Counted from the stretch's first letter, positions 3,095 to 24,091 are shown. The stretch is DNA of 64,000 bases from Candidatus Poribacteria bacterium (GCA_963665845.2 OY762492.1:2720001-2784000); one strand, 5' to 3'. Made by a program: numbers and translations. The notes: generated by a model not told the origin, from the letters alone.

Positions 3095-4831
3095 GTGTAC
3101 GAAGCGGTTGACCGGTCGTTGGTTGACATCTTAGAAGAAGGCGGCATGCTTTCACAGGAGCATTCCGCGCAGGCGAGAGAGCGGCTGGCGGAAGCGGACG
3201 GAACCGACGAAGCCTCCGTTTTGGAGGAGTTTGTCTCCGCCGCCGACCTGGAGCTGGCGGTGAAAAGCCGAGAATTCGGCGTCCCATGCGTCCGACTCAA
3301 CGGACAAGGCGACAACCAAGAGGTCGTCAGCAAAATACGCGCCAATTACGCCTACAAGTACAAGGTGGCGCCCGTCAGTATGGACGACGGAAAACTGGTC
3401 GTGGCGATGGCGGACCCGCTCGATATTGAGCTGATCGATGAACTGCGGGTGGTGACGGGGCATGACGTCGTCCCGCTCCTCGGCGACCAGTCCGACATCG
3501 AAGACGCCATCCGGCGCTACTACGGGCAATCGACCGAGCAGCTGATTAGCGGACAGCTGGCAGGTCCCAGCGGTTCGGTCACCATCGAAACGGTCGAAGA
3601 GATCCATGACTACGGCATGAACGCCGATGTCCTGGCGCGCGACCCGACCGTCAAAGAGGCGGTGAACCAGATCATCATCGACGCGGTGAGCGAAGGCGCG
3701 ACCGACATCCATGTGGAGCCGTTTGAGGACAGGCTGCAGATACGGTTCCGTCTGGACGGCATGCTGGAAGCGCGCACCTCGCCGCCGAAGCATCTCCAAG
3801 CGGCGATCTCCTCCTATATCAAGCTGCAGTCGGAGATGAACATCGCCGAGACGCGCCGCCCCCAAGACGGGCGCATCCAGGTGCGCATCGCGACTCTCGG
3901 ACAGCGCGAGATCGACATCCGCGTGTCCACCGTCCCAACGATCTGGGGCGAAAGCATCGCCATGCGTATCCTTGACAAAAACATGGTGCGCCTCGGTTTG
4001 CGCGAACTGGGACTTCTAGAACGCGATTTTGAACTTTTCCAGAAAATGATCCACAAGCCCTGGGGCATCATCCTCGCCACAGGACCGACAGGGAGCGGAA
4101 AAACCACCTCCCTGAACGCGATTTTGAACGAGATCAAAGATGTCGGAACGAAGATCATCACGGTGGAAGACCCCGTTGAATACGACATGGACGGCATCAA
4201 CCAGATCGGCGTCAACGCCGAGATCGATGTTACCTTCGCCCGCGCGCTGCGGCATATTCTGCGGCAAGACCCCGACAAGGTGATGGTCGGCGAAATCCGC
4301 GACCTTGAAACGGCTGAAATGGCGATCCACACCTCGCTGACGGGGCATCTTGTTCTCTCGTCGCTGCATACGAACGACGCGCCGCAGGCGATCACCCGTA
4401 TGATCTCGATGGGCGTCGACCCGTATCTGGTCTCGTCAACTTTGGAGGGGGTCATCGCGCAGCGTCTGCCTCGGCGCGTTTGCCGAGCCTGCGCCCGGAT
4501 GGAACCGCCGACCCATGAGGAGCTGCTGGCGGTTGGCGTGGATCCTGACCAAGCCGACCCTGACTGGTTGGTTCCGCAGCCTGTCGGCTGCGCGCAATGC
4601 CGCGGGACAGGCTACCGCGGGCGCATCGGCATTTTTGAAATCATGCAGATGACCGAACCGCTGCGCGAGCTGGCGCTCCAGAACGCGTCCGCGTACCAGA
4701 TACGCCAGCATGCGGTCAAGGAAGGCATGCGCTCCCTGCGCGACGACGGATGGGAAAAGGCGCTGAACGGAATCACCACTGTCGAAGAGGTGCTGCGCCT
4801 CACGCCGTCCGCCGGAACGGTAGGCGCCTGA
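3095..4831 (+). CDS. gspE: T2SS/T4P assembly ATPase GspE/PilB
   Basis: Walker A GPTGSGKTT, TVEDPVEY, LRQDPDKVMVGEIRD, LHTND, CxxC...CxxC zinc motif. Confidence 0.95.
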   Translation: MYEAVDRSLVDILEEGGMLSQEHSAQARERLAEADGTDEASVLEEFVSAADLELAVKSREFGVPCVRLNGQGDNQEVVSKIRANYAYKYKVAPVSMDDGKLVVAMADPLDIELIDELRVVTGHDVVPLLGDQSDIEDAIRRYYGQSTEQLISGQLAGPSGSVTIETVEEIHDYGMNADVLARDPTVKEAVNQIIIDAVSEGATDIHVEPFEDRLQIRFRLDGMLEARTSPPKHLQAAISSYIKLQSEMNIAETRRPQDGRIQVRIATLGQREIDIRVSTVPTIWGESIAMRILDKNMVRLGLRELGLLERDFELFQKMIHKPWGIILATGPTGSGKTTSLNAILNEIKDVGTKIITVEDPVEYDMDGINQIGVNAEIDVTFARALRHILRQDPDKVMVGEIRDLETAEMAIHTSLTGHLVLSSLHTNDAPQAITRMISMGVDPYLVSSTLEGVIAQRLPRRVCRACARMEPPTHEELLAVGVDPDQADPDWLVPQPVGCAQCRGTGYRGRIGIFEIMQMTEPLRELALQNASAYQIRQHAVKEGMRSLRDDGWEKALNGITTVEEVLRLTPSAGTVGA

Positions 4832-6090
4832 TGCCGAGATACGCCTATGTAGCCGTCACCACCTCCGGTTCCAAAACAAAAGGCTCCATGGACGCGGCGT
4901 CGCGCAACGAGCTGGTCGCCCGCCTTCGAGAGATGGGGTACTTTCCGACGCATGTTGAAGAGGCGGTCGGAGAAGAAGATAGCGGCCTCTTTAGCGGATT
5001 TCGCGTCGGCAAGAAGGTGAAACCGAAGCAGGTGGAGTTTTTCACCTTTCAGCTGGCGACGCTGGTCAAGGCGGGCATTCCGCTTGACAGGGCGTTGGTC
5101 ACCTGCTCCGAGCAGGCGGAAAGCAACGAGCTGCGCCGCCTCATCGAAGACATCCGCGCGGACGTCGAACAAGGCGCCAGCCTCTCCGAGGCGATGGGAA
5201 AGCATCCAAAGCATTTTGACGATCTGTACACGAACATGGTTCGCTCCGGGCAAGAAGGCGGGGTGCTGGGTCTTGTGCTGGGGCGCCTTTCCGAGTTCAG
5301 CCGACAGCAGCGCGAGCTGCGCGACTCGGTCGTCTCGGCGCTCATTTATCCGATCATCCTGCTGTTCATTGCGGTCATCATCGTCGCGGTGATGATGCTT
5401 CTGGTGATTCCGCGCTTCACCGAAATGTTTATGGAGGTCGGGATGGACCTGCCGGCGTCCACCCGTATGTTGATTGCGGTCGTCGCCTATGTGAAGTCGG
5501 CGTGGGGGTTTGCGTGGATGTATGGAAGCATACCGCTTCCGGGCGCGACGCTGACAGGGATGATTTTGATCTGGTTCGCTTCGCGTCAGTACCGCAAAAC
5601 GGAGTCGGGCGAGGTGTTTTTTGACAAGGCGCGCATGCGCGTCCCGCTGGTCGGTCCCGTCGTCCGAAACTTCGCCATTGTCCGCATGACGCAGACGATG
5701 AGTACGCTGTTGGAAAACGGCGTCATGCTGTTGACGGCGCTGCGCGTCGGAAAGGCGACCACCGGCAGCGTCGTCTATGAAAGCGCGCTGGAGCATGCGG
5801 AGCAGGAGGTGCAAACCGGCTCCAGCCTGTCCGGCCCGCTCGAAGAAAGCGGCCTGTTTCCGCCCATCGTTACGAACATGCTGGCGATTGGCGAAGAATC
5901 AGGGCGCCCGGAGACGATGCTCGGCCACCTCGCCGACTATTACGACATGGAAATCAAACGCTCTCTGGAACGGCTGGTGGCGGCGTTGGGACCGATGCTC
6001 ATTCTGTTTATGGCGGGCATCGTCGTCGTCATCGCCATCTCCATCATCACGCCTATGGTCAACCTGTCCAACATCAGCGCAAGCCCATGA
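4831..6090 (+). CDS. gspF: T2SS inner-membrane platform protein GspF/PilC
   Basis: TGATG coupling to gspE; MPRYAYVA, QLATLVKAGIPL, SALIYP, IGEESG. Confidence 0.93.
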   Translation: MPRYAYVAVTTSGSKTKGSMDAASRNELVARLREMGYFPTHVEEAVGEEDSGLFSGFRVGKKVKPKQVEFFTFQLATLVKAGIPLDRALVTCSEQAESNELRRLIEDIRADVEQGASLSEAMGKHPKHFDDLYTNMVRSGQEGGVLGLVLGRLSEFSRQQRELRDSVVSALIYPIILLFIAVIIVAVMMLLVIPRFTEMFMEVGMDLPASTRMLIAVVAYVKSAWGFAWMYGSIPLPGATLTGMILIWFASRQYRKTESGEVFFDKARMRVPLVGPVVRNFAIVRMTQTMSTLLENGVMLLTALRVGKATTGSVVYESALEHAEQEVQTGSSLSGPLEESGLFPPIVTNMLAIGEESGRPETMLGHLADYYDMEIKRSLERLVAALGPMLILFMAGIVVVIAISIITPMVNLSNISASP

Positions 6091-6117: not shown

Positions 6118-6621
6118 ATGGCACGAAAACTGCTCAATAAACTCCGACGGCGGAGCAACGGCGACGAGGGTTTCACACTGGTGGAAGTTCTGGTCGTTTT
6201 GACGATCATCGGAATTCTTGCGGCGGCGATCTCGCCCGCTGTCCTCAAAGAAATCGGCAAAGCAAAACAGCAAAAAGCGCAGCAGCAGATCTCCATCTTC
6301 GCAGGCGCCCTGAAACGGTACAGCCGCGATGTCGGCGACTACCCGACAACAGAAGAGGGGTTGATGGGGCTGATCCAAGCGCCCAGCGGCGTGACCGGAT
6401 GGGACGGACCCTATCTGGAAGAGGCGCTGCTCCCTGACGGAACCATGAAGCCCGACCCCTGGGGGAACCAGCTGGAGTACGTCTATCCAGGCGCGCACCA
6501 AGCCCTGACCTACGCCTTCGACCTGACCAGCTACGGCAGAGACGGACAAGAAGGCGGTACCGGCGTCGACTCCGACATCTCCAACTGGGCGGGCGTCATG
6601 GACGAAAGCCAGGAAGAGTAA
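6118..6621 (+). CDS. gspG: Major pseudopilin GspG
   Basis: G|FTLVEVL prepilin site; YPTTEEGL, WDGPYL, DPWGN, YGRDGQEGG. Confidence 0.95.
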   Translation: MARKLLNKLRRRSNGDEGFTLVEVLVVLTIIGILAAAISPAVLKEIGKAKQQKAQQQISIFAGALKRYSRDVGDYPTTEEGLMGLIQAPSGVTGWDGPYLEEALLPDGTMKPDPWGNQLEYVYPGAHQALTYAFDLTSYGRDGQEGGTGVDSDISNWAGVMDESQEE

Positions 6622-6635
6622 GCAGGCGGCGAACG

Positions 6636-7265
6636 ATGAACGCAATGCGCATGAACCCAGAACGCTCTCAAAGAGGCTTCACGCTGGTCGAAATGCTGGT
6701 CGTGCTGGCGATCATTTCGCTCATGCTGGCGGTCGCGGCGCCCTCGTTCAAAAACTTTTCGGACAAGCAAAAGTTGGAGACCGCAGGCGACGCGGTACGC
6801 AGCCTAGCGCATTACGCGCGCGACACCGCCATGGCGGACGGAGAGCCGTATATGATCGTGTTCGACTTCGTGCAGCAGACCTTCTGGCTTTCAAAAGCCT
6901 CCGCCCTGGAATACGGCGACCTGTCGATGAGCGCCTATCTCGGATCCTACGGACCCGAAGCGGAAGGCATGTCGCCTGAAGAGATGATCGCCGAACGCGC
7001 CCACGGCATACTGGGCGATATGCGCGAAATGGACGCCGTCGTCTCAATAGACCGAGTCGATGTGGAGCGCGAAGGCGCCATCGTGAGCGGCGCGCCCGAT
7101 TATGAATATGTCCAGTTCAATGCGGACGGCACCGCCGAGCCGGCAAGCGTCTATCTGTTGAATAACCGGAACCAAGCGGCGGTTGTGGATGTATGGCTCC
7201 GCGCTTCCCGCATTGATGTTCGGATGTTGAACGATAATGAGGCGTCCGAACTGGTTGAACGGTAA
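6636..7265 (+). CDS. gspH: Minor pseudopilin GspH/FimT-like
   Basis: RG|FTLVEML; ARDTAM; FNADG; gene order. Confidence 0.85.
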   Translation: MNAMRMNPERSQRGFTLVEMLVVLAIISLMLAVAAPSFKNFSDKQKLETAGDAVRSLAHYARDTAMADGEPYMIVFDFVQQTFWLSKASALEYGDLSMSAYLGSYGPEAEGMSPEEMIAERAHGILGDMREMDAVVSIDRVDVEREGAIVSGAPDYEYVQFNADGTAEPASVYLLNNRNQAAVVDVWLRASRIDVRMLNDNEASELVER

Positions 7266-7290
7266 CGCTGTGAAGAGAAACCGCGCCGCC

Positions 7291-7701
7291 ATGAACAAAT
7301 CTTCTGGGTTCACTTTGCTAGAGGTGCTGGTCGCGCTGGCGATTATCGGCGGAACGCTGCCGTTTTTGGCGCTGGCGCTGGCGAACACCTCGCGCATGAG
7401 CGCCGAGTCGAGAGACCTGATCACCGCGTCGCATCTGCTGCGCGATAAAATGAGCGAACTGGAATCGGTCGAATCGCTTCCGTCGGGGCAATCGCAGGGC
7501 GAGTTCCTTGAAGGCGCCCGCTTTCAATGGCAGGTACAGATCTCTCCAACAACCTACAACTCCCTCTACGACGTCTCGGTGATGGTTACATGGCTTTCAG
7601 GCGGAATACCGAAACGGCTCGGCGCCCGAACCTACATCATGGGCGAAGCGCAGGAGGCGGAAGAAGAGGGCGGACAGCAAGGCGGACAAGGAGCCAGATG
7701 A
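7291..7701 (+). CDS. gspI: Minor pseudopilin GspI
   Basis: SG|FTLLEVLVALAI; short; FQWQVQI and VSVMVTW. Confidence 0.85.
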   Translation: MNKSSGFTLLEVLVALAIIGGTLPFLALALANTSRMSAESRDLITASHLLRDKMSELESVESLPSGQSQGEFLEGARFQWQVQISPTTYNSLYDVSVMVTWLSGGIPKRLGARTYIMGEAQEAEEEGGQQGGQGAR

Positions 7702-8534
7702 TGCAAAGACGCGCTCAAAGACGCAAAGACGCGGGCTTCACGCTGGTCGAACTGCTCGTCACTATGGCGATGGTGACGATCGTCAGCGGCATCGTCTACT
7801 CCTCCTTCAGTAACGCGCTCAGCTCCTATAGCAAGGATTCGTCCAAGATGAATGAGGCGCGCGCCATACGCGCCGGACTGCAGGGGCTGGCGGACGATAT
7901 GTCGAACGCTGTCGGCGACGCTGCGAACCTTGATTTCATGTTTCTGTTTCAGGACATGGAGGGGCTTGAAGGCTACGGGCAGGACATCGTCAGCTTCGTC
8001 ACCTCCACCGAGCCGAACACGGCGGAAACGGAAAGCCTCAACAACGGCGCGCCGCCAAGCCGCGCCGGTACGCTCCAAAGCTCCATCATTGAGGACGAGG
8101 AGGAAGACGCCCCGCAAGCGGCGTCCGATCTGATTCGTATCGCGTATATGGTCGGCGCCAGCCAGGACAACCCCCCAGACGAAAACGCCGAGATTCAACC
8201 GCAGGCGCTTCTCAAAGTGATCTCGCCGACGCTGGACATTGAGGAGCTGCTGGGAGATTCGGGGCTGTCGCAGGATGTCGAATCGATGCTTGCCGCGCTC
8301 ATGGAGCAGGGGGCGGAGGTGGAAACGGTCGTTGACTCGGTTCTGGGGCTAGATTTTGAGTTTTTTGACGGCGAACAGTGGACGCCGATGTGGAACACGG
8401 AGGAGCAGGGGGTTCCGCTGGCGGCGCGCGCCAAGCTGACCGTCGGCAACGCGGCAAATCTAGAAACCGCGCTCACCCGCTCCACCACCGCGCGCATCGC
8501 CGTCACAAGCGTCCCAGGAGGAGCGGGAAATTGA
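7698..8534 (+). CDS. gspJ: Minor pseudopilin GspJ
   Basis: ATGA overlap; AG|FTLVELL; LDFEFFDGEQWTPMW...PLA. Confidence 0.85.
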   Translation: MMQRRAQRRKDAGFTLVELLVTMAMVTIVSGIVYSSFSNALSSYSKDSSKMNEARAIRAGLQGLADDMSNAVGDAANLDFMFLFQDMEGLEGYGQDIVSFVTSTEPNTAETESLNNGAPPSRAGTLQSSIIEDEEEDAPQAASDLIRIAYMVGASQDNPPDENAEIQPQALLKVISPTLDIEELLGDSGLSQDVESMLAALMEQGAEVETVVDSVLGLDFEFFDGEQWTPMWNTEEQGVPLAARAKLTVGNAANLETALTRSTTARIAVTSVPGGAGN

Positions 8535-9949
8535 AACGCCCCAACGACGCCGGCCTCGCCCTCATCACAACGCTCTGGGTCATCGCCATCCTGTCCATAC
8601 TCGTTACAGCGTATCTGTACGACGCCCATCTGGACTGGCGAATCAGCCGCCGCGCCGTTGAAAAAACGCAGGCGGAATACGCCGCCAAAGCCGGCATCTC
8701 CCAATTCCAAGCGGTACTGGAAGACGACGACGAATCGTACGACGACGCCCAAGAGGACTGGGGGCAGGGCGTCAGCGGGCAGATGGAAGACCCCGCCGGG
8801 ACAGGCAAGGCGTTCAGCTACTCTGTCAGCGCGACCGATCTGAACGCGCTTATCGACATCAACTCGGCGGATGAAACGGTCGTCAGCTCGCTGCTGCAAA
8901 GCGCGGGCGTCCCGGAAGAATCGCGCACAACGCTGGCGCAAAACATTGTCTCGGCGCGGGATCAACGCCCCTTCCTAACGCCAGGCGACCTCGCCCGCGT
9001 GGAAGGCATGACGAACGCGATTCTATACGGCGGTCAAGCCGCGCCCGCAGAAGGCGAAGAAGCGCAGCAAACGACTCCGCTTATCAACCTTATCAGCGTC
9101 TATTCCGTCGATAAGAATGAGCAGTCGAACGGAACCAGCCGGACGAACATAACCAGCGCGGACGCCAACACGCTCCGCCAAAATTTAACGAACTCGAGCG
9201 GCGAGGAGCTGCTGTCTCAAAATGAAGCGGACGCATTGGTCAGCTACCGAGACGACAACGAACTGGAATCGATCGGCGATCTGTTCGACGCGACGGCAAT
9301 CACCCAAGAGACGCTGAACGACATCCGCGGCGATCTTAGCACAGACGATTCGGACGACGACGACGAGGACGAAACGACCAACATCAACACGGCAGACGCC
9401 GACCAGCTCGCCAATGTAGACGGGCTGGATCAAGGCACGGCGGAAGCGATCGTTCGTTACAGGGACGAAAACGGGAACTACGACAACGTGGACGATATAC
9501 AGAACGCGCTCATCTTCACCCGCGATGAGATACGGCAGATCGCCGACAAAGTCACGGTGACAGACGACGACACTTTAACCGGCGTCTTGAACCTCAACAC
9601 AGCGGGCGCGAGCGCACTGGGGCTGCTGCCGAACATGAACAACCAGAAGGCGCAGGCGATTGTGAACCAGCGGCAAGCGCAGCAGGCGTCCAACGAACAG
9701 CAAGGCTCCGGCGCCGAGGAGGCCTCCGCCTCCTCCAACCCGTTCCGATCCATCGGCGATCTGCTCAACATCGACAGCATCGACGCGGAGACCTTTAAAG
9801 GAATCGCCAACCTTGTGACCTATAGAACGCAGGCGTTTCAGCTGACCGCAAACGGGATGGACCCCGCAGGGGCGCAAGCGGCGACCGTCACCGCGATCAT
9901 CGACCGCAGCGGCGAGGAGATCAGCATTCGTTTCTGGCGCATTGAATGA
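8531..9949 (+). CDS. gspK: Minor pseudopilin GspK with four HhH (ComEA-like) modules
   Basis: TTG start overlapping gspJ stop; AG|LALITTLWVIAIL; QAEYAAKAGI; repeated (L/I)N(I/L)N(T/S)A modules; C-terminal IRFWRIE. Confidence 0.85.
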   Translation: MKRPNDAGLALITTLWVIAILSILVTAYLYDAHLDWRISRRAVEKTQAEYAAKAGISQFQAVLEDDDESYDDAQEDWGQGVSGQMEDPAGTGKAFSYSVSATDLNALIDINSADETVVSSLLQSAGVPEESRTTLAQNIVSARDQRPFLTPGDLARVEGMTNAILYGGQAAPAEGEEAQQTTPLINLISVYSVDKNEQSNGTSRTNITSADANTLRQNLTNSSGEELLSQNEADALVSYRDDNELESIGDLFDATAITQETLNDIRGDLSTDDSDDDDEDETTNINTADADQLANVDGLDQGTAEAIVRYRDENGNYDNVDDIQNALIFTRDEIRQIADKVTVTDDDTLTGVLNLNTAGASALGLLPNMNNQKAQAIVNQRQAQQASNEQQGSGAEEASASSNPFRSIGDLLNIDSIDAETFKGIANLVTYRTQAFQLTANGMDPAGAQAATVTAIIDRSGEEISIRFWRIE

Positions 9950-9997: not shown

Positions 9998-11932
9998 GTG
10001 GCTAGCAAAACGATCATCGGCATCGATATCGGCGCCCACTGCGTCAAAGCGGCGCGCGTCGAAGACAAAGGCGGGTTCACGGTTCTGGGCATCGGCGAGG
10101 AGCCAATGCCCCCAAACGCTTCGATTGAGCAGCAAAAAGAAGCGATCCAAAAAGCGCTCAACCAAGCGGGCGGACGGCGCAGCCGGTGCGTCATCGGCGT
10201 GCCGCGCGACCAGGTCGTCCTGCGGCGAATCGACAAGCTGCCGAAAGACCTGGACGAAGCGAGCATGCGGGAAGTGGTGCGCCTCCAGGCGGACAGCGAG
10301 CTGCCGTTTGATCATGGCGAGGCGGTGTACGATTATCTGAATGTGCGCGAGAGCGAGGAATCCGCTTCGGTGGAGATCGTCGCGGCGCGGCTCAGCGAAG
10401 TGGAGCGTCTCGTCAACAGCGCGCGCGAAGCGGGCGGCAAGCCGGTCGCCATCGCGCCGTCGGTGTTTGCGATCCCGGCGCTCGCGCGGCTGCACGCCGG
10501 CAACGAGACGGACCATCGCCATCTGCTCATTGTGGATATCGGGCATTCGGCGACCGAGGTCGGCGTCATTTGCGACGGCGCCATCGAAACGACGCGCAGT
10601 TTCCCCATCGGCGCCGACCAGCTGCGCAACGGCGACGCGCGCATCCCTTCCCTCTTTATCGGCGAATTGACGCGCACCGTTCAGGCGCACAAGCGGCAGT
10701 TTGAAGACGACAAGCCGTTCGACGACATCTGGCTCTGGGGCGGCGGCGCCTCCATGCGCTTCGACAACCTGACCGAAGACGGCGCGTCGGTCTCGCTGGC
10801 GCAGCTGATCGAAGCGCAGCTGGGCGCGCCCGTTCATACGAACATCGAAATCGGCGGGTTCAAGGACGCCTCCAAGGTGAGCGCGGAGCCTGCAGGCTGG
10901 CATCGATACGGCGTCGCGCTGGGGCTGGCGGTCGGCGAGCTGTCCGGGACGCTGGAAGCGAACCTGATACCGAAAATGGACAAGGAAAAGCATGAACAGG
11001 CGGACCGCAACAGGCAAGCGCTCGTTTGCGTCATCGCGGCGGCGGCTTTGACCGCGGCTATCGCCCTGCTCAGCGCCCAGATCAAGCGCAGCCAGGCGGA
11101 GGATGTGCGCAGCCTCAACAACGAAATCAAAACCTATAGAGCGGACAAGGCGATCTCCGACCAAGAAGCGTCCAAAATCCGCCGTATGAACGCCTACATG
11201 GAGCCGAAATACTCGGTTCTGGATGTGCTGCGGGAGCTGACCGCTCTTCTGCCGGACCGCCCCTCGGTCGCGGCGACCGCGATACAGTTTTCCGATTCGG
11301 GCGAGGTGCAGATCGAACTGCAGGGAAGCTCGCATGACATCGTCAAGGAGACGGCGCGCAAGATCGCCCGATCGCCATGGTTCGACTCGAACGAAATCTC
11401 CCTCAGCCAAGTAACAACGTTCGAGGAAAACAGGCGCCAGATCCATCAGTTCAGGGTCACCGCTCAAGTGTCGGTCAACGCCCCGGTTCTAGCCGTCCGA
11501 AAGATCGGAACCGGCAACGAACCGACCGCTGAAGCGGAACCGCAGGGTCAACGCGGCGGAGGCAGACAAACCGCCCAAAGCGGCGGAAATCAGCAGCGGG
11601 GAGGAGGCGGCAGCCGCCAGGTCTCTTCGCGTCAAGGCGGCGGACGCGGCGGCGAAGCGCGAGGAAGCGGCTTCCAGCAAAGCGGCCAAGTCTCCATTCA
11701 GAACGTAAAGGCGGCGGCGGAGTTTGAAGCTATCGAAGGCTCCGAGAAAATAGAGGCGGCGTTGAAAGAGGCGCTGGGGAAAGAAGGCGTCAGCATTGAG
11801 CTGGACGCGGAAGCGCTTGAAAAGCTGAAGTCGGAGGGAATCGCAGTGATAAAGAGCGACGCCTCCATCGACAGCGGAACGATTGAAACCATCAAGATCG
11901 ATGTGTCAACAAGCGAAGAAAAGGACGAATAG
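9998..11932 (+). CDS. GspL-like PilM-PilN fusion (actin-like domain, TM helix, periplasmic domain)
   Basis: IIGIDIG and LIVDIG actin-fold motifs, ALGLA..ANLIP, TM helix, PilN-like domain, G/Q-rich tail. Confidence 0.8.
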   Translation: MASKTIIGIDIGAHCVKAARVEDKGGFTVLGIGEEPMPPNASIEQQKEAIQKALNQAGGRRSRCVIGVPRDQVVLRRIDKLPKDLDEASMREVVRLQADSELPFDHGEAVYDYLNVRESEESASVEIVAARLSEVERLVNSAREAGGKPVAIAPSVFAIPALARLHAGNETDHRHLLIVDIGHSATEVGVICDGAIETTRSFPIGADQLRNGDARIPSLFIGELTRTVQAHKRQFEDDKPFDDIWLWGGGASMRFDNLTEDGASVSLAQLIEAQLGAPVHTNIEIGGFKDASKVSAEPAGWHRYGVALGLAVGELSGTLEANLIPKMDKEKHEQADRNRQALVCVIAAAALTAAIALLSAQIKRSQAEDVRSLNNEIKTYRADKAISDQEASKIRRMNAYMEPKYSVLDVLRELTALLPDRPSVAATAIQFSDSGEVQIELQGSSHDIVKETARKIARSPWFDSNEISLSQVTTFEENRRQIHQFRVTAQVSVNAPVLAVRKIGTGNEPTAEAEPQGQRGGGRQTAQSGGNQQRGGGGSRQVSSRQGGGRGGEARGSGFQQSGQVSIQNVKAAAEFEAIEGSEKIEAALKEALGKEGVSIELDAEALEKLKSEGIAVIKSDASIDSGTIETIKIDVSTSEEKDE

Positions 11933-11935
11933 ACG

Positions 11936-14032
11936 GTGAAATTTGAACTGGGCGGAGCCGTTTCGGATCGCAGCGTCAAGCTGCTACTCATCGTCGCGGT
12001 CGTTGGGGTCGCGCTCTTTACGGCGTTTCAGCTGATCGGAATTCTCAGCGGACAAGAAAATGTGGACGCTAAAAAACAGGAGCTGGCGGAAGCGTCGCTC
12101 ATGTCGCGCCTGCAAGAGCCGCTCAAAACGGCGGCGCGTTCCATTCAGGACGCCTCGAAGACGTCGGGAGAAACGCTGCCCCAGCCGGTCATCGACAAAA
12201 TGAAAGAGGTGTACGCTGTCAAGCCGACGCCTGAAAACGGAAAACGCTCTATCCTGACAGCGAGCGCAAACGACCTGATGGCGCGCCTGGGCGTCAACCC
12301 TCGGCAGGCGCAGTTCATCCTTGAAAACAGGGCGGGCGTTGAATCGGTCGACGATTTCTCGGACCGGCGGCGCAACCTGTTTGACGCGAACGCGGACACC
12401 ATTGAGCCGATGATCCTGCAAAAAATCGCGCAAATCGCCGGCAGAAGCGGCATTCAAAAACTGGATTTTGTGAAGGTTGAACAGCAAACCAAAGTCGATA
12501 AAACGCAAGCCGTCCTCGTCAAACCAAGCCCGATCTCCATCCAAGACCTGGCGGAGCGCAGAGCCGCCATCCGAGAGGCGCTGGAGTCGGAGCATTCCGC
12601 CCCGCTGCAGGAAGCGGCGCAGCGGCTGATTCAGCTGACGCGCGACGACCCTTCCATTCGAAACAGCGCGGAGGACAACCTCGAATCGATGATGGACAAC
12701 CCCAACCTTTCTGCGGACAAGGTCGCCCAGCTGCGCCTCGCCCATCTCGCCTCGCAGCCCTCCAAGATGCGTATACTGGACAGCCTGCTGCGAACGCATA
12801 TGCAGGATGGATTGAGCCGAATTCCGCCGGAACCAGCGCCAGAACCGGAGCCGCAAACAAACGGCGAAAACGAAGCCGAAAACGCCGCTGAAAACGAGGC
12901 AGAGAACGGAAACGAAACCGAAGAAGAAAACGGCTCCGAAAATGCTGAAAATAACGAGGAAGGCGGAAACGAAAACGCAAACGGCGAGGAAGGCGGAAAC
13001 GAAAACGCAAACGGCGAAAATGAAACGAAAACAGAAGCCGATGACGCCGAAGCGGACAATGTCAAGGAACCGTCTAAACCGCCGGCGCATCCCGCCCCCA
13101 TCAAATTTGGAGCGTACCCCTATCCGCGCATCCCCCAAATAGAACCGGCGGCGCAGAAGCGGTTGATGGAAACGCTCCGCGACAACCAAGCCGCCTGGCT
13201 CAGCGACGACCAGCTGCGTTACATTCTGGATGTGAAAGAGGAGGAGCCGAAGCCCGACAATACAGACACAGAAGAGGGCGCGACCGAAAACGAAGATGAG
13301 GGCGGCGGCGAGAATGCCGAAAACGAAGATGAGGGCGGCGGCGAGAATGCCGAAAACGAAGATGAGGGCGGCGGCGAGAATGCCGAAAACGAAGATGAGG
13401 GCGGCGGCGAGAATGCCGAGACTGAAAACGAAGAAGAAAACGGCGCGCAAGAAACTACAGACGCCGATCCGAACGAATCTGAAGAGGCGGCAAACGAAGA
13501 AAACGGCGGCGGCGCGAATCAAAACGAAGGCGACAACGCCAACGGCGGCGACGCGAATCAAAATGAAAACGAGAGCGACAACGGAAACGGCGACGGCGCT
13601 GACCAAGATGAAAACGCCAACGGCGACAACGGAAACGGCGAAGCGAAAGACGAAGAGAACGGAGACAGCGAAGCGAACGGCGACGAGAGCGGGGACGATC
13701 AAAACGACGGCGAAGACGCCCAAGACGAGAGCGAGAGCGGACCGCCGCCGTTCACCCATCCCGACCTCGAAGAGATACGCGCCTACCATGTCAAGCTGAT
13801 CGATACGTTGTGGCGCATATCGGAGGCGGTGGATAAACCGTCCCCCTCCAAGCCGATCATCTACACGGCGGCGACCGAATTTCGGGCGCGGCTCGAAAAC
13901 CTCACCCGATTCGTGTACCAGCTGGAAGGGGAAGCGCCGTGGATGCGCATCTCCGAACTCAACCTGACAAAGCACAACGAAGACGGTCCAACGCTTCTCG
14001 TCCGAGTGACCGTCAAAGCGACCATCTTTTGA
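11936..14032 (+). CDS. GspM/PilO-like membrane protein with long acidic low-complexity insertions
   Basis: N-terminal TM; C-terminal FRARLENLTRFVYQLE..WMRISELNL PilO/GspM-like; position after GspL. Confidence 0.6.
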   Translation: MKFELGGAVSDRSVKLLLIVAVVGVALFTAFQLIGILSGQENVDAKKQELAEASLMSRLQEPLKTAARSIQDASKTSGETLPQPVIDKMKEVYAVKPTPENGKRSILTASANDLMARLGVNPRQAQFILENRAGVESVDDFSDRRRNLFDANADTIEPMILQKIAQIAGRSGIQKLDFVKVEQQTKVDKTQAVLVKPSPISIQDLAERRAAIREALESEHSAPLQEAAQRLIQLTRDDPSIRNSAEDNLESMMDNPNLSADKVAQLRLAHLASQPSKMRILDSLLRTHMQDGLSRIPPEPAPEPEPQTNGENEAENAAENEAENGNETEEENGSENAENNEEGGNENANGEEGGNENANGENETKTEADDAEADNVKEPSKPPAHPAPIKFGAYPYPRIPQIEPAAQKRLMETLRDNQAAWLSDDQLRYILDVKEEEPKPDNTDTEEGATENEDEGGGENAENEDEGGGENAENEDEGGGENAENEDEGGGENAETENEEENGAQETTDADPNESEEAANEENGGGANQNEGDNANGGDANQNENESDNGNGDGADQDENANGDNGNGEAKDEENGDSEANGDESGDDQNDGEDAQDESESGPPPFTHPDLEEIRAYHVKLIDTLWRISEAVDKPSPSKPIIYTAATEFRARLENLTRFVYQLEGEAPWMRISELNLTKHNEDGPTLLVRVTVKATIF
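13286..13417 (+). repeat. Perfect 33-bp coding tandem repeat x4 (ENEDEGGGENA)
   Basis: GAAAACGAAGATGAGGGCGGCGGCGAGAATGCC repeated four times; a 30-bp duplication also lies at about 12956-13015. Confidence 0.95.
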
Positions 14033-14055
14033 AGACGACAACGAAGGAGCGACTC

Positions 14056-14748
14056 ATGATACGAAGAACAGCGGTTGCGTTGTTTGCGATGGCGGCGATG
14101 GCGGCTCCGCAGCTTTACGCGGACGAGCGCCCGCCGATGGACTACTACAAGATTCTCTCCGAGAAAAACCTGTTCCGAAAACTGGGCTGGAAACCGCCCG
14201 ACAACCGCCCGCGCTACAGCCTGCTCATGACCGTAGTGATCGAAGACGAGACCGAAGAGGAAGAAACGGTTGAATTGAGCGAGGAAGAGCAGTTTCTGCT
14301 GACGCTTTACGGGAATGAACTGGAAACGCCGGAAGAGTCGACCGCCGAGCTGGAAGCGGAGCCGCGCAAGAACTACGCCAGGATCCAGCGGCAAGGCGGC
14401 TCCACGTATACCGTGGACGAAGGGGACCAGTTTGAAGGCATGACGCTTGTCTCCGTCGGCTATGGGCGGGTCGCCATCGTCAACGGCGAGGGCGAAGAGA
14501 CGAACCTATCGCTTCCGACCGCCTCCGGCGCATCCGGCGGAAGCGCCAACCAGGGCGGCAGCTCGCGCAGCCGAGCGCAAGCCTCCTCCCGTTCCAGCGA
14601 GAGAGGCGGGCGCGGCGGATTCCCTGAAGGCATGCCGGCCGATATGCGCGAACGGATGGAGCGGCTGCGCAACGCCAGCCCCGAAGAGCGCGCCGAAATC
14701 ATGCGGGAATTCCGCGGACGAGGCGGCCGGCGAGGCGGCAGAGATTGA
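14056..14748 (+). CDS. GspC/PilP-like protein
   Basis: RBS AAGGAG; N-terminal signal/TM; HR-domain-like YTVDEGDQFEGMTLVSVGYGRVAI; directly upstream of secretin. Confidence 0.55.
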   Translation: MIRRTAVALFAMAAMAAPQLYADERPPMDYYKILSEKNLFRKLGWKPPDNRPRYSLLMTVVIEDETEEEETVELSEEEQFLLTLYGNELETPEESTAELEAEPRKNYARIQRQGGSTYTVDEGDQFEGMTLVSVGYGRVAIVNGEGEETNLSLPTASGASGGSANQGGSSRSRAQASSRSSERGGRGGFPEGMPADMRERMERLRNASPEERAEIMREFRGRGGRRGGRD

Positions 14749-14764
14749 AAAAACGCGGTTCCAT

Positions 14765-14796
14765 TAAACCTAAACGCCTGTTTTGGAATCTAACAT
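14765..14796 (+). promoter_or_regulatory. Putative ECF-type internal promoter for secretin
   Basis: TAAACCTAAA...AATCTAACAT resembles the motif upstream of gspE. Confidence 0.35.
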
Positions 14797-14847
14797 GCTG
14801 GAGCGCAACGCGCATGCTGCCAGCGGCGCCAGTAGAAAGTTGAAAAC

Positions 14848-17817
14848 GTGAAACCATTGAGGATGCCCATGTTCACCCGTAGTTACCGCCGCCTGATCGT
14901 CTTTGCCGCCGTCTGCTTGACGGCGCTGCCCGCCGTCTTGAACGCCCAGCAGGGCATGCAGGTCACCGAACGCGGCGACGACGATAAAGCGGCAAGACTC
15001 ACCCTAGACTTCGTCAACGTCGAACTGAAGGATCTGATCCAGTTTATTCAGCGCGAAACCGACCTGACCATCATCTCCACCGAACGGGACATACAGGGCA
15101 AAAAGCTGTCGCTCGTCAACCTAAAAAATGTGACCATCGACGAGGCGCTGGAAAAAATCAAAACGGGGCTGATGCAGTTCGATCTGACAACGATTCAGAC
15201 CGACTCAACGCTTCTCATCACGACCGTTCAGAAAGCGGTCAGGATGAAGGTTCCCGTCTCCTACGGCGCCGACCCTGAATCGATACCCGACTCGGATCAG
15301 GTCATTACGCATGTGATCCCGCTGAAGCATCTGAACGCGGACGAGATCGCCGGAAAGCTTGGATCGTTGAAGTCGGACGCCGGCGTTCTGTTTGGCGACC
15401 GTGAATCGAACACGATCGTCATCACCGGCATCGCCTCCAACATCCGGCGCATTGCGACCTTCCTAGCGCAGATCGATGTCGCCAGCATGGACATACAGCT
15501 GTTTGAAACCGAGGTGATTCAGATCAACAACACCGAAGTGGACGAGATTGAGGACGCGCTGGAGGACCTGTTCGGCAGATCAGGCGACACCGCGCGATGG
15601 TTTTACTCCGACTCCGGCGGCTCGGCGGCGTCGGCGGGGCTGGCGGTGTTCATCACCAGCAATGACGAAACGAACCAGCTGATTGTCCGCGCGACAAAAG
15701 AAAATATGGATTACGTTAAAGAGCTGGTCGCCAAGATGGATGTCGCCCCGTCGCTTCAAACCGATGTGCGCGTCTTCCCGCTGAAATACGCGAACGCCAG
15801 CAATGTGGTCGATATTTTGCAAGAGGTGCTGGAAGGCTCCTCCTCCTCAAGCAGCCGCAGCAGCCGATACTACTACTCCTCATGGTACGACCGAAGCCGA
15901 GGCAGCGATTCGCAAGGGGTCGCCGGCGAGATTCAATACGCCGCTGACGAACGGCTCAACGCGGTCGTCATCTCCTCCGACCCCAGCAACTGGACCATCA
16001 TTGAAACGCTGATCAATGAGCTGGACATACAGGACGACCCAGGGAATGAGATCGAAATCTTCGTCTTGAAAAACGCCAACGCCGAAGCGCTGGTCCAAAA
16101 CATTCAGGAGCTGATCGACGGACAGGACGACGACGACCGAGACCGCTACCGGTACTGGTGGTACGACGATTACGATCAGGGCGACGACGATTCAGACAGC
16201 GGCTTTGGGCTTCAAGGCGAAGTGAACCTGACGGCGGACACGCGCCTGAACGCGATCGTCGCGGCAACCTCCTCCAAGAACCTAGCGGTGCTGAAAGACC
16301 TGATCAACCGCATGGATGTGAGCATGCCCGAACAGGAATGGGGAACGCGCATCTTTCCGCTGCAGTACGCAGACGCGACGAAGATCGCCGAGGTGCTGAA
16401 CGCCGTCTATCAAGGCGGGGGTCAGCAAGGCGGAGGCGGCGGAGGCGGCTTTTTCTCTTTCTTAGAATCGGTGCGAAGCCGCAACCAGGGCAACACCGCC
16501 CAAGGCTCGCTCGCCGGCAATGTGGTCGCGGCGGCGTATCCGACGACAAATTCGATCATCATTTCAACGGGAACGGCGCGCAACTTTGAGCTGATCGAAG
16601 AGTTTATCAAGGAGCTGGACATTCCGACGCCTGAAGGGCAGCGCGAAATCACGCGCGTTTTCAACCTTGAATACTCGGACGCGACGCAGCTGGAGCCGCT
16701 CCTGTCCCAAATATGGAGCAGCAGCTCGCAAGACCAGGGCGGCGGTTTTCCGTTCTTCGGTCCATTTGGGCGCTTCTCGCAATCCGCGGCTGAACAGAAT
16801 ACGGACATCAACAGCCTCATCGACAAGGTGAGCCTGTTCGCCGACGAACAGACCAATTCGCTCGTCATCACAACCCGCTCCCGCTACATTGAGGATATTG
16901 AAAAGATCGTCCGCGCGCTGGACATCGTCCGCGGGCAGGTCTGGATCGACATCCATATCCTTGAGCTGACGCTGGACGACACAACGAAGATGGGCATTGA
17001 GATGGCGCTGATGGAGAAACGGCTCTTTGGAACAGACGCCTTCGGCAAAAACCGAGAGCCTGGCTCCAACCCGCTCACCGGCGAATTCAATTCGTCGCTC
17101 AATTTGGAGCAGCAGATCACCGGCTTTTCCGTTCAGGCGGCGACAAACGAGTACATGGGCTTTCTCCATACGCTCATGCGCAGCAACAAGGTCAGGACGC
17201 TCTCCTCGCCTAGTTTCATGGTGCGCGACAACCAGCCCGCCACCTTCGTAAGCGGGCGCGATATTCCGTATCTGCAGAGCGCCCGCACCTCCGACCTGCT
17301 GGAAGGGCAGATCTTCGACTTTGACTTCCTGCAGGACATCGGCATCAACATCAGCATCACGCCGCGCATCGCGCGCATGACCGCAGGCGACCGCGGCAAA
17401 CGCACCATCGGCTTGCAGATCGATCAGATCACGGCAAGCAATTTCATTGAGTTCACCAACTTCAACGCCCCGCTGACCGAAGAAAGCACCGTCTCCACCT
17501 TTATCGACGCGGAAGACGGGCAGCAGATTGTGATCGGCGGCTTGAAGAAGCGTAAACAGCAAGAGGTTGAAGAAAAGGTGCCGGTTCTGGGCGACCTGCC
17601 GCTTGTCGGGGCGCTCTTCCGCCGGACAGAGAATATCGCGCAGGACTCGGAGGTCGTCATCGTTATCACGCCGCGCATCGTCGACATCAACAACCCTGAA
17701 GACAGAGCGCGCATGCAGGACATACAGTATGATCAGTTCGGCTCTCATGACGATCTCCTGACGCCGTTAGAGGAGACAACGGGCGACGCCGAAGTCGAAG
17801 CGCCGATGAGCGAATAA
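14848..17817 (+). CDS. gspD: Secretin GspD with N0 plus six N domains
   Basis: LTLDFVNVEL N0; repeated (V/I)F.L.YA.A ... N.(L/I)(V/I) domains; QVWIDIHILE, DNQPA, KVPVLGDLPLVGALFR. Confidence 0.93.
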   Translation: MKPLRMPMFTRSYRRLIVFAAVCLTALPAVLNAQQGMQVTERGDDDKAARLTLDFVNVELKDLIQFIQRETDLTIISTERDIQGKKLSLVNLKNVTIDEALEKIKTGLMQFDLTTIQTDSTLLITTVQKAVRMKVPVSYGADPESIPDSDQVITHVIPLKHLNADEIAGKLGSLKSDAGVLFGDRESNTIVITGIASNIRRIATFLAQIDVASMDIQLFETEVIQINNTEVDEIEDALEDLFGRSGDTARWFYSDSGGSAASAGLAVFITSNDETNQLIVRATKENMDYVKELVAKMDVAPSLQTDVRVFPLKYANASNVVDILQEVLEGSSSSSSRSSRYYYSSWYDRSRGSDSQGVAGEIQYAADERLNAVVISSDPSNWTIIETLINELDIQDDPGNEIEIFVLKNANAEALVQNIQELIDGQDDDDRDRYRYWWYDDYDQGDDDSDSGFGLQGEVNLTADTRLNAIVAATSSKNLAVLKDLINRMDVSMPEQEWGTRIFPLQYADATKIAEVLNAVYQGGGQQGGGGGGGFFSFLESVRSRNQGNTAQGSLAGNVVAAAYPTTNSIIISTGTARNFELIEEFIKELDIPTPEGQREITRVFNLEYSDATQLEPLLSQIWSSSSQDQGGGFPFFGPFGRFSQSAAEQNTDINSLIDKVSLFADEQTNSLVITTRSRYIEDIEKIVRALDIVRGQVWIDIHILELTLDDTTKMGIEMALMEKRLFGTDAFGKNREPGSNPLTGEFNSSLNLEQQITGFSVQAATNEYMGFLHTLMRSNKVRTLSSPSFMVRDNQPATFVSGRDIPYLQSARTSDLLEGQIFDFDFLQDIGINISITPRIARMTAGDRGKRTIGLQIDQITASNFIEFTNFNAPLTEESTVSTFIDAEDGQQIVIGGLKKRKQQEVEEKVPVLGDLPLVGALFRRTENIAQDSEVVIVITPRIVDINNPEDRARMQDIQYDQFGSHDDLLTPLEETTGDAEVEAPMSE

Positions 17818-17819
17818 GC

Positions 17820-18977
17820 ATGCGTTTACCGTTGACCGGCAAACGGAGCGATCATCTGAAAATCGGCGTCGCCGCGGCAGGCAGGGGCGACCTAGAAACG
17901 GTCCGCGAAATCGCGCGCGTCAAGCCCGAATGGATTCGGCGCGTCGCGTCCCACGGGCGAACGATGCTCTGGGAAGCGGCTTGGCGCGGCAAGCTGGAGG
18001 TTGTGAAATTCTTGGCTGAAGTCGGCGCGGATGTGAACGCGCATGGCTGCCATTACACGCCCCATCGCATTGAGATCAGCCCCGTCTGCGCCGCCCGTTT
18101 AGCGCGGCGGACGGAGACAGCGGAGTGGCTGTTGAAAAACAGCGCCGTTTATGACGTCTACGCCGCGGCGTATCTGGGCGACCTGCCCGCGCTCAACAGG
18201 TTGCTGGATGAGGATCCGTCCCAAATAGAAGCGGGAAATCCGCAGGCGGAAATCGCCGCTGACGCCGTTGAAGAGGACGGCTCGCCGATGTTGGCGCCGG
18301 CGCCCGCGCCATGGGCGACTCCTTTAATGTACGCCGTTTGCGGTCAACAGCTGGAGGCGGTTCATTTGCTGATTGAGCGCGGGGCGGACGCCGTTCAACA
18401 CAGCAAGACGCTGATGGGCGATGTCCGAGAGCATGTGGACATCGCGCGCGCGTTGATAGAGGCGGGCGCAAATCCGCATGACGCGCCGACGCCGATTTCG
18501 GCGCAGGACGGGGTCGGCAAGCTGTTGGCGGAATACGGCGTTCAGCCCGACCCGAACAAGCCTGTTCATTGGGGCTGGCCGCCGATTGTGTATTACAGCC
18601 GAGGCGACAAGGGGGAAAATCCGCAGCGCATTTTAGAGCTGATTGCGGCGGGCGCGGATGTGAACGCGCGAAACCGCAAAGGCAAAACGGCGCTCCACGC
18701 GGCGGCGAAAGCGGGTTTCTCCAAAACGATGGCGGCGCTTCTGGAACATGGCGCCGACATCAACGCGCGGGACAACGCCGATGAAACGCCCCTGTTCGAC
18801 GCGGTTCGCTCCACGATACGCAAAACCGATAAAAAGATTGCCGCCGTTGAAACGCTGCTGGCGTCCGGCGCGGACGCCTCCGCCGTCAACAAGAGGGGCG
18901 AAACTCCGCTCGCTGTCGCGCAGCGCTCCCGCCGCGAAGGCGCCGACAAGATCGTCCGCCTTTTAAGAGAGGTCTGA
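17820..18977 (+). CDS. Ankyrin-repeat protein
   Basis: GRTMLWEAA, GADVNA, TPLMYA, GKTALHAAA, ETPLFDA, GETPLAVA. Confidence 0.92.
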   Translation: MRLPLTGKRSDHLKIGVAAAGRGDLETVREIARVKPEWIRRVASHGRTMLWEAAWRGKLEVVKFLAEVGADVNAHGCHYTPHRIEISPVCAARLARRTETAEWLLKNSAVYDVYAAAYLGDLPALNRLLDEDPSQIEAGNPQAEIAADAVEEDGSPMLAPAPAPWATPLMYAVCGQQLEAVHLLIERGADAVQHSKTLMGDVREHVDIARALIEAGANPHDAPTPISAQDGVGKLLAEYGVQPDPNKPVHWGWPPIVYYSRGDKGENPQRILELIAAGADVNARNRKGKTALHAAAKAGFSKTMAALLEHGADINARDNADETPLFDAVRSTIRKTDKKIAAVETLLASGADASAVNKRGETPLAVAQRSRREGADKIVRLLREV

Positions 18978-19012
18978 CAGCTCATCCCCACTTCATGCTC
19001 GCTTTCCTCTCC

Positions 19013-19395
19013 GTCATTCCCGCTCCTCTCTCTGTCATTCCCGCGTAAGCGGGAATCTTAAGGCGCTACAGCCGCCGCGCGCGGCTAAAACCCCCCCAGC
19101 CCCCCTTTTCAAGGGGGGAGTCCAGAAACCCCGCGCTATCCGCTGTCATTGGGCTGCTCGTCATTCCCGCGCCTCTCTCCCTGTCATTCCCGCGTAAGCG
19201 GGAATCTTAAGCGCCGCAGTTGTCGTCTGAACTAGGATTGCCAAGATTAAAAAGATTAACATGAGGATTGCGAATGCCGATACGCCGCTCTTGACATGCC
19301 GCATCCCCGGCCGTCCCCGCTTCCGAGAGGGCATGCATTCCCGCCCTTGCGGTAAAACGCGCGGGAATCCAGAGTCGATCTCTAAACCGTCCGCA
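19013..19395. repeat. Mosaic intergenic repeat block (REP-like GTCATTCCCGCGTAAGCGGGAATC x2, poly-C/G hairpin, TGAACTAGGAT half-element)
   Basis: Palindromes at 19034-19057 and 19183-19206; CCCCCCCAGCCCCCCTTTTCAAGGGGGG at about 19091-19118. Confidence 0.85.
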
Positions 19396-22969: not shown

Positions 22970-24091
22970 ATGACCTTCTCCGCCTTCACAAAACCCGTGG
23001 CGGCGTTCGTGTCCGCTGTCTTCTCGCTTCTGTTGTGCGCGTCCGCGCCGGCAAGAGACTTTGTCCCAAAGGAAGATGTAACAAGACTGGAGAAGCCGAC
23101 CCTCTGCGTAAGGAGCGGAGACACGCTTAAACTCATCGACTGGGACGGTCAAAATGAAAGGGTCTGGATGACAGGCGAATTCAACGGCCCCGCTAGATTT
23201 AGCCGGGACGGCAAGCGCGCCGCCTTCATCGCCAGTACGGACGATTTCGGTTGGTACACGATGTTCATCCTGGAGCTGGAAACAGGGCGGCTCATCAACA
23301 TGACCGAGCGCCTCGACAACAAAGGATATGAACATATTTACATTCCATTTGTAGCGTGGTTTCCAGACGGGAGGCGTCTTGCATGCGCCGCAAAAGACAG
23401 AAACAACCCGTTCCCATCGTTTGGAGACATCTATGCGTTGGATTTCCGCGCCGCGGCGCTGGAGCAGCTCACCAAGACGCCGGATCAGGATGAATATTGG
23501 CCGTCCGTCTCTGGAGACGGCAAGAAGATCGTTTACAGTTCCACTCCCAGCGACAAGGAGAGAGCTGCGCTCGGTCTCACTGGAGATCACTGGCGCAAAC
23601 ATCTCTATACGATGAACGCTGACGGCTCCAACGTTGTCAACCTGACGTACAGCGCTGCAACCGAGAGATACCCCGAATGGTCGCCGGACGGCAAGAAGAT
23701 TGCGTTTGAGGCGTTCGACCGCAAAGATCAGGAAGGAGAGATTGGAGGACCTGACGTTTATATGATGGACCCGGACGGTTCCAATGTTGAGCGTCTCACA
23801 TCCCGCAAAGACGGATTGCGGGCAAGCCTCAGCGATTGGTCGGCGGACAGCAGATGGATTCTGTTCCATATAAAACTTGACGACAACCACAACCCGCTGA
23901 GCGGACTTTACCGCATTCATATAGAGACGCGGGAGATCGTGCGCATCGGCCGATTCGGCGCAACGACATGGGTTCATGCGGGCAAGAGCCGTTTCCTCTC
24001 CGTTGACCCTGCCGGTAAGAAAAAAGCGCCATGGGGAGCGTTGAAAGCGGCGGACCGTAGCGATAAACCAACTCCGCAAGACGGCGACTAA
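22970..24091 (+). CDS. Secreted TolB-like PD40 beta-propeller protein with C-terminal WGALK motif
   Basis: Signal peptide; FSRDGK, WFPDG, WSPDGKKIAF, MNADGSN; C-terminal SVDPAGKKKAPWGALK. Confidence 0.85.
   Translation: MTFSAFTKPVAAFVSAVFSLLLCASAPARDFVPKEDVTRLEKPTLCVRSGDTLKLIDWDGQNERVWMTGEFNGPARFSRDGKRAAFIASTDDFGWYTMFILELETGRLINMTERLDNKGYEHIYIPFVAWFPDGRRLACAAKDRNNPFPSFGDIYALDFRAAALEQLTKTPDQDEYWPSVSGDGKKIVYSSTPSDKERAALGLTGDHWRKHLYTMNADGSNVVNLTYSAATERYPEWSPDGKKIAFEAFDRKDQEGEIGGPDVYMMDPDGSNVERLTSRKDGLRASLSDWSADSRWILFHIKLDDNHNPLSGLYRIHIETREIVRIGRFGATTWVHAGKSRFLSVDPAGKKKAPWGALKAADRSDKPTPQDGD

Follow-up and report, generated by a model that had tools for sequence, protein, structure and literature searches.

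Secretins that serve type II secretion systems (T2SS), among them GspD, PulD, XcpQ and ExeD (PDB 5wq7, 5zdh, 6hcg, 5wln, 6i1x), consist of an N0 domain, a series of KH-like N domains and a barrel, are encoded in a T2SS operon, and have in their last N domain a disordered loop that lies between helix 1 and strand 2. The same features are found in the gspD product of a Candidatus Poribacteria bacterium, encoded in the 64,000-nucleotide stretch analysed here (GCA_963665845.2 OY762492.1:2720001-2784000; hereafter the window). It differs from canonical GspD in having six KH-like domains where the latter has three, and five long loops where the latter has one or two; its loops bear conserved aromatic clusters, a lipobox is lacking, and the C-terminal helix is short. 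Four tiers of aromatic loops, one in each of the domains N3 to N6, are conserved in this family, and we tentatively read them as stacked, cohesive, displaceable seals in a lengthened secretin tube.

Long N-domain stacks and loop gates are already known. PilQ of Thermus thermophilus has six rings (N0-N5), a length of 350 Å and a second gate of long loops (PMC5745081). It resembles the Poribacteria protein in its extended stack across a wide periplasm and in an extra gate made from long Gly-containing N-domain loops. It differs in that it serves a type IV pilus and DNA uptake, has one ring fewer, and has a single extra gate, modelled from two N1 loops (beta1-alpha1 and beta2-beta3); aromatic tiers are not described in the excerpts of that paper. 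In Deinococcus GspD a second gate is present and N3 contains a gap of 59 residues (PMC10828601), and BfpB has a Ser-rich hairpin loop in N3 (PMC12114550). In the giant secretins (about 2000-5500 aa) of Planctomycetota and Verrucomicrobiota the N domains are likewise multiplied and the loops sit at the same site, but these proteins form a separate clade with tens of domains and their loops are mostly non-aromatic.

A precedent for the loops is the N3 insertion of InvG (residues 217-267, helix 1 to strand 2), the proposed source of the periplasmic constriction, which threads out between the rings once the needle fills the lumen and steadies the N-domain interfaces in the open state (PMC6155069). 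It is the same topological loop as in the Poribacteria GspD, and its constriction is likewise proposed to be displaced by the contents of the lumen; InvG, however, belongs to a type III system and has a single tier, in contrast to four aromatic tiers. In f1 pIV the disordered N3 loop is directed at the pore centre, according to a passage that gives no residue numbers (PMC8563730). PulD residues 288-303 are unmodelled in the cryo-electron microscopy structure (PMC6882859), and PulD loop 287-305 is the topological equivalent of the loops described below. Nothing decisive on the N3 loop was found in the excerpts of PMC6532946, PMC10550240, PMC9239104, PMC5646249 or bioRxiv 10.64898/2026.05.07.723501. 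A full-text literature search, with most subscription journals and supplementary files outside its coverage, brought up nothing on the secretins of Poribacteria, or on secretin loops of aromatic or phenylalanine-glycine (FG)-like kind; the aromatic tiers were not found in print. What is new is apparently a conserved GspD variant with four short tiers of graded chemistry kept across the phylum.

The gspD open reading frame (ORF) encodes 989 residues with no internal stop (Table 1). Translation may in fact begin with the ATG of residue 8 (position 14869), because the database protein has 982 aa and M8 is nearly invariant. A Pfam scan found six PF03958 (Secretin_N) stretches and one PF00263 (Secretin) at 120 bits (cut-off 27.5). 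The NCBIfam model for GspD (TIGR02517) scored 440 bits, above its cut-off of 351.35, and the PilQ model (TIGR02515) reached 232 bits, below its cut-off of 284. The protein is a GspD family member by each family test that gave a result. No lipobox was seen in the signal-peptide region, as read from the sequence. An assembly artefact was ruled out, as a contig from run X3 is identical over 13390-19054 (X3 may be the source sample) and the homologues agree. In RNA run X1 (share 0.06), contigs from a close relative covered 29 of 30 bins at low depth; because DNA carry-over is possible, these reads were not used as evidence of expression.

An AlphaFold2 monomer model was built on 75 aligned homologues (mean predicted local distance difference test score [pLDDT] 68, predicted template modelling score [pTM] 0.36). 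It shows N0, six beta-alpha-beta-beta-alpha domains and then the barrel, with a single helix at 950-964 and an acidic tail at the C-terminus. Foldseek returned T2SS secretins as top matches, 5zdh and 5wq7 being the best. Residues 597-981 of the model aligned to InvG 175-550 by VIA (Z 11.4, root-mean-square deviation [rmsd] 8.7, 267 aligned); on this model N6 is the counterpart of canonical N3. Five stretches, all of them located after helix 1 and before strand 2 of a domain, have pLDDT below 50 (residues 245-264, 331-356, 427-452, 523-556 and 626-654). The sequence-only reading of this DNA had described a secretin with N0 and six KH-like N domains against the canonical three, and this is borne out by the Pfam matches and the model. 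The five loop motifs it quoted, ARWFYSDSGG among them, were all located in the protein. Its five disordered aromatic inserts do sit in five low-pLDDT loops at the equivalent site, but as a conserved trait the aromatic patch of N2 falls away.

To follow the loops through the family, we used 83 secretin ORFs from 80 species-level loci (80 of 185 confirmed loci), all of which (83/83) have six N domains. At least two aromatics were present in the N3, N4, N5 and N6 loops of every ORF (83 of 83 in each case), in the N2 loop of three and in the N1 loop of none. At least three aromatics were found in 34 (N3), 79 (N4), 81 (N5) and 82 (N6) ORFs. A dereplicated set of 24 homologues (<80% identity, drawn from 120 listed of 380 hits) gave at least two aromatics in 24/24 loops for N3, N4 and N5, 23/24 for N6 and 3/24 for N2. 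The N2 insert of most relatives is Met/Lys/Glu-rich and helix-like, and its aromatic patch is limited to close relatives. Since the N2 patch occurs in just 3 of 83, the conserved aromatic tiers number four, not five, and the conservation across homologues that had been proposed as a check holds for N3-N6 and fails for N2.

The four tiers differ in chemistry. Trp is foremost in N3 and N4, where the flanks are Arg-rich; in N5 and N6 it is Phe, flanked by Gly, Ser and Gln. Over the 83 ORFs the N3 loops contain 152 W, 44 Y and 23 F and have a net charge of +2, and the N4 and N6 loops are net acidic. Column conservation within the loops was 0.83-0.92 at aromatic positions vs 0.54-0.68 elsewhere, and W437, W438, F536, F538 and F634 are nearly invariant in the homologue alignment. 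F, W and Y interchange between homologues, Tyr runs stand in place of Phe or Trp in distant copies (L159, L161), and the spacers and loop length vary. The aromatic class is therefore kept while the residue changes, as would be expected of stickers rather than of a fitted pocket. Each loop closes with a conserved xxG[ILV]xG-type motif, which is probably ordered. A few divergent members are without one cluster (e.g. N4 of P0248).

A gspD match was detected in 121 of 121 phylum genomes searched, most of them near full length and a few partial or weak (G052, E 2.6e-21). The named homologues and loci belong to Ca. Poribacteria, and a second class of the phylum shows the same pattern (L102-L104). 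Tandem copies of the six-domain gspD are present in some genomes, two in many genomes of genus g6 and three in G029; such copies (e.g. L106, G029:C1:3369000-3382000) differ in the aromatic type of their N3 and N5 loops.

We compared the loops with several backgrounds. Sixteen canonical GspDs (hand-picked from 60 listed of 975 plasmid records, nearly all Pseudomonadota) supplied 22 loops of at least 15 residues, whose aromatic fraction was 0.029; two aromatics within five residues occurred in none of the 22, and three had at least three spaced aromatics. In 235 giant secretins, for which the profile used overlooked many N domains, 1804 parsed loops of at least 20 residues had an aromatic fraction of 0.023 and a close aromatic pair in 175. 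The six-domain family, N2 loops included, had a fraction of 0.085 and a close aromatic pair in 417 of 600 loops. At least three aromatics within 6 residues occurred in 79 of 1009 other low-complexity segments of this genome (crude gene calls) vs 4/4 N3-N6 loops. Two giants (P0125, P0146) have Ser/Arg/Tyr loops resembling the N3 loop of this gspD, and P0122 is without them.

A tree of the N domains, built with loops removed, placed N3, N4 and N5 in a single clade (support 96/92) and N1 with canonical N1 (97/96). Because N3-N5 group together, the tree suggests that a single module gave rise to them by being duplicated in the interval from N2 to the last domain. In the barrel-region tree, four-, five- and six-domain secretins come together (98/96), apart from the giants (100/99) and from canonical GspDs. 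The five-domain member P0361 (L119:6001-8661) lies within a full T2SS operon and has Trp and Phe clusters. The four-domain Poribacteria paralogue has true FG repeats (loops of 45-55 aa, with a mean of 1.6-2.7 FG each; 102 of 120 proteins parsed). It is found in 16 of 61 genomes and is absent from the genome studied here; at the loci inspected it forms a stand-alone pair with a gspC-like gene, outside a full T2SS operon. These loci (L100:1269-3677 (-), in G031:C1; L101; L121-L144) often add a small Gln/Arg-rich exported protein, and at two metagenome loci neighbouring genes carry a Poribacteria-type C-terminal tail. For the range outside Poribacteria, a profile search of representatives was dominated by giant secretins, and the Atlas returned generic Secretin_N clusters only for this secretin type.

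How would such loops work? By homology to the N3 loop of InvG, PulD and pIV, the N3-N6 loops likely face the lumen. About 15 subunits would stack N0-N6 into a tube roughly 28-39 nm long spanning a wide periplasm, with the helix 1-strand 2 loops turned to the closed lumen, as proposed for the InvG loop. Some 45-60 aromatics per ring would cohere at the axis, by cation-pi pairing of Trp with Arg in the inner tiers and by Phe contacts below the central gate, and each extra ring would both lengthen the tube and add one sticky diaphragm. Cargo driven by the pseudopilus would open the tiers in succession, so that the long tube would never be open along its whole length. Between the aromatic centre and the nearer of the two loop anchors there are 12-17 residues, which give an estimated reach of 24-30 Å as a coil or 40-58 Å fully extended, sufficient for the loop tips to meet at the axis. 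The long M-like and L-like proteins of the operon would agree with a wide periplasm. An N3-type constriction repeated four times is, by this analogy, the likely working mode, and a nuclear-pore-type mesh is not established.

Several points weigh against stacked seals. An inward orientation is documented for the N3-equivalent ring only, and the InvG loop itself is able to thread outward. The loop disorder is predicted from a monomer model with a pTM of 0.36, and the loop orientation is taken by homology. Assuming 15 subunits, a lumen of 75-90 Å and a rise of 27 Å per ring, the loops would take up an estimated 30-44% of the N1-N6 lumen, which is very dense, so that part of the tiers may be outside it. 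Long N3 loops with 4-6 aromatics, spaced apart, are also found in some canonical GspDs (L114, L115). Aromatics are not rare in the other low-complexity segments of this genome (fraction 0.068, from crude gene calls), over which the plain aromatic fraction of the N3-N6 loops, about 0.075-0.13, is a modest excess. The N3-N5 clade rests on 60 columns and takes in one stray long-branch control row. Finally, tier-specific chemistry kept across the phylum (W/R vs F/G) exceeds what a plain seal needs and may reflect binding of cargo or a partner.

A most improbable reading takes the patches for neutral filler of low complexity, placed in a loop that tolerates it. The lineage-specific N2 patch and the aromatic background of the genome would agree with filler, which is already disfavoured by conservation of four loops in 83/83 ORFs at an overall identity of about 43-60%, and by the nearly invariant Trp and Phe positions. 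Membrane-binding amphipathic helices in the loops were rejected, as N3-N5 gave no amphipathic-helix signal and N2 and N6 a weak one (N6 mean z 1.19). The same result counts against another unlikely arrangement, in which some or all loops thread outward between the rings as docking or bracing elements, either steadying the long stack or attaching to GspC/L/M, to peptidoglycan or to the membrane. Because the lumen would be crowded with all loops inside, outward threading of some tiers is plausible; the InvG loop does thread out and stabilises the open state, the loop-end motif is conserved, and the GspC-like protein has an Arg-rich tail. The low pLDDT of the loops, the F/W/Y interchange and the variable loop length speak against such docking.

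In FG-nucleoporin and PEX13 tyrosine-glycine (YG) meshes, disordered polar spacers with aromatic stickers are tethered round a pore. Disordered aromatic stickers in polar spacers are also present in the six-domain GspD (pLDDT below 50, composition), where a tethering round the pore would follow by analogy with InvG. Homology is not shown, however, and each short loop of the protein has a single cluster, whereas the meshes have tens of repeats spread along hundreds of residues; a folded central gate and a piston are present as well, and no receptor is known. The patches had been called FG-like in the sequence-only reading, which is overstated for loops of 28-41 aa with a mean of 0 to 0.8 FG dipeptides (dereplicated homologues) and one cluster each without repeats. 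It had also offered a nucleoporin-like mesh or stacked gates, and of the two the stacked gates fit better, given loop lengths of 28-36 residues.

We consider it unlikely that the lumen-facing loops select or carry cargo, as a nucleoporin-like aromatic phase admitting matching aromatic/Arg patches or shielding lipid anchors. The graded, conserved tier chemistry suits such a phase, as does the sister four-domain secretin, whose real FG repeats in a stand-alone pair with a gspC-like gene suit a swappable specificity module; acyl-chain shielding by the T2SS is described as an open question (PMC12802150). The single cluster per 30-residue loop does not suit it, no carrier or transport receptor was identified, and the obvious tagged cargo has another possible exit. 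Its tag is the C-terminal tail V-[DE]-P-x-G-K...W-G-x-L-K, found in 98 ORFs of the genome vs 0 in reversed controls. The genome also has 53 T9SS-tail matches (type IX secretion system, T9SS), an SprA-like ORF below cut-off and PorV-like genes; since these offer another route, the tagged proteins are not assignable to GspD, and the tail was not tied to this secretin as a cargo signal. In an earlier paper, Por structural genes were not found in Poribacteria single-cell genomes (PMC3909097, excerpt). A quite unlikely elaboration is a seven-ring tube filled by an aromatic phase graded from Trp/Arg on the inside to Phe/Gly on the outside, which would sort folded or lipid-anchored cargo by partitioning, like FG nucleoporins, and whose cargo range would change when the four-domain FG paralogue, or tandem copies of GspD that differ in their loops, were swapped in.

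The W-G-x-L-K tail stands on many unrelated proteins, one of them encoded at 22970-24091 (+) of the window. The SprA-like ORF (2225 codons, G000:C1 about 935000-941800 (-), outside the window; TIGR04189 below cut-off) has YG/FG-rich loops, so aromatic low-complexity inserts occur in both large export pores of the genome.

Aromatic slides occur in sugar porins, and the aromatic and Arg tiers could likewise be a slide for a polymer, in exopolysaccharide export or in DNA or glycan uptake; we hold this distinctly improbable. This gspD is the sole secretin detected in the 90% complete genome, ComEC is present elsewhere in it, the gspK-like protein has three helix-hairpin-helix (HhH) stretches above the ComEA HhH cut-off, and the N3 loops are Trp/Arg-rich and net positive. 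HhH domains are, however, usual in GspK, and the acidic N4 and N6 loops do not suit such a slide. The genome gave no PilT (TIGR01420) match above cut-off, and the operon is a plain T2SS with no polysaccharide genes among those scanned. In the literature, Myxococcus slime secretion requires GspD (PMC12475490), and Thermus and Deinococcus secretins take part in DNA uptake.

The gspD gene is the last gene of the T2SS operon, in the order E, F, G, H, I, J, K, L-like, M-like, C-like, D (Table 1). G and K scored over their cut-offs, the rest gave weaker hits, and M is assigned from position only. No pilotin was found among the operon genes scanned; the genome was not searched for one. The gspM-like ORF has two long acidic Glu/Asn/Gly spacers and tandem repeats, and its counterpart in L151 has 340 aa. 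The C-terminus of the gspC-like protein has a Met/Arg/Glu-rich stretch and an RGG tail where a PDZ domain would stand; this stretch is similar in Met/Arg/Lys/Glu composition to the N2 insert of most gspD relatives. An ankyrin-repeat gene (17820-18977, +) begins two bases 3' of gspD and was not seen at that place in L107 or L151. A short element at about 19025-19095 of the window has very high depth in run X3 and is probably a multicopy intergenic repeat.

Table 1. Positions of the T2SS genes and of the GspD domains in the window.
Feature	Position	Strand	Basis and remarks
gspE-type ATPase	3095..4831	+	Walker A motif; only PilT-family match of the genome, below cut-off
gspF	4750..6090	+	PF00482; TIGR02120 364 bits, below cut-off 424
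gspG major pseudopilin	6118..6621	+	TIGR01710 124 bits, above cut-off 88.9
gspH-, gspI-, gspJ-like minor pseudopilins	6636-7265, 7237-7701, 7698-8534	+	N-methyl motifs; best hits GspH, GspI, GspJ, all below cut-off
gspK-like	8378..9949	+	PF03934, PF12836 x3; TIGR00426 68.6 bits, above cut-off 53.1
gspL-like PilM-PilN fusion	9998..11932	+	PF11104 and PF05137
gspM-like, 698 aa	11936..14032	+	Position in gene order only; no family hit
gspC-like	13939..14748	+	NF041515 E 6e-4, below cut-off; no PDZ hit
gspD secretin gene	14848..17817	+	989 codons; TIGR02517, PF03958 x6, PF00263, fold matches
Predicted Sec signal peptide	14848..14946	+	Cleavage after Ala33, read from sequence; A33/Q34 nearly invariant; model helix 12-31
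N0 domain, about residues 49-135	14992..15252	+	VIA match to enterotoxigenic Escherichia coli (ETEC) GspD N0 4jtm, Z 9.5, rmsd 2.6, 79 aligned
N1 domain, loop short	15301..15483	+	Clusters with canonical N1, support 97/96
N2 domain	15505..15744	+	Loop 243-265 (15574-15642), lineage-specific WFY patch
N3 domain (extra)	15763..16029	+	Loop 329-360 (15832-15927); Trp/Arg type in family, Tyr-rich in this protein
N4 domain (extra)	16048..16320	+	Loop 424-457 (16117-16218); family core PWW
N5 domain (extra)	16342..16623	+	Loop 522-557 (16411-16518); GGFFxF core
N6 domain	16645..16926	+	Loop 624-659 (16717-16824); family core GGFxFxRFF
Secretin double-barrel domain	16933..17685	+	PF00263 E 7e-35; fold matches

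The Poribacteria GspD touches on two open points, namely how a secretin seals while admitting folded periplasmic cargo, and the role of the unresolved N3 loop. The four-, five- and six-domain secretins are natural variants, and the conserved aromatic residues are clear mutation targets. If the loops merely seal, the protein is a variant of the known N-domain constrictions. If it is true that they sort cargo, the nuclear-pore mesh would have a counterpart in bacteria, a pore whose selectivity is phase-based, with relevance for substrate recognition by the T2SS.

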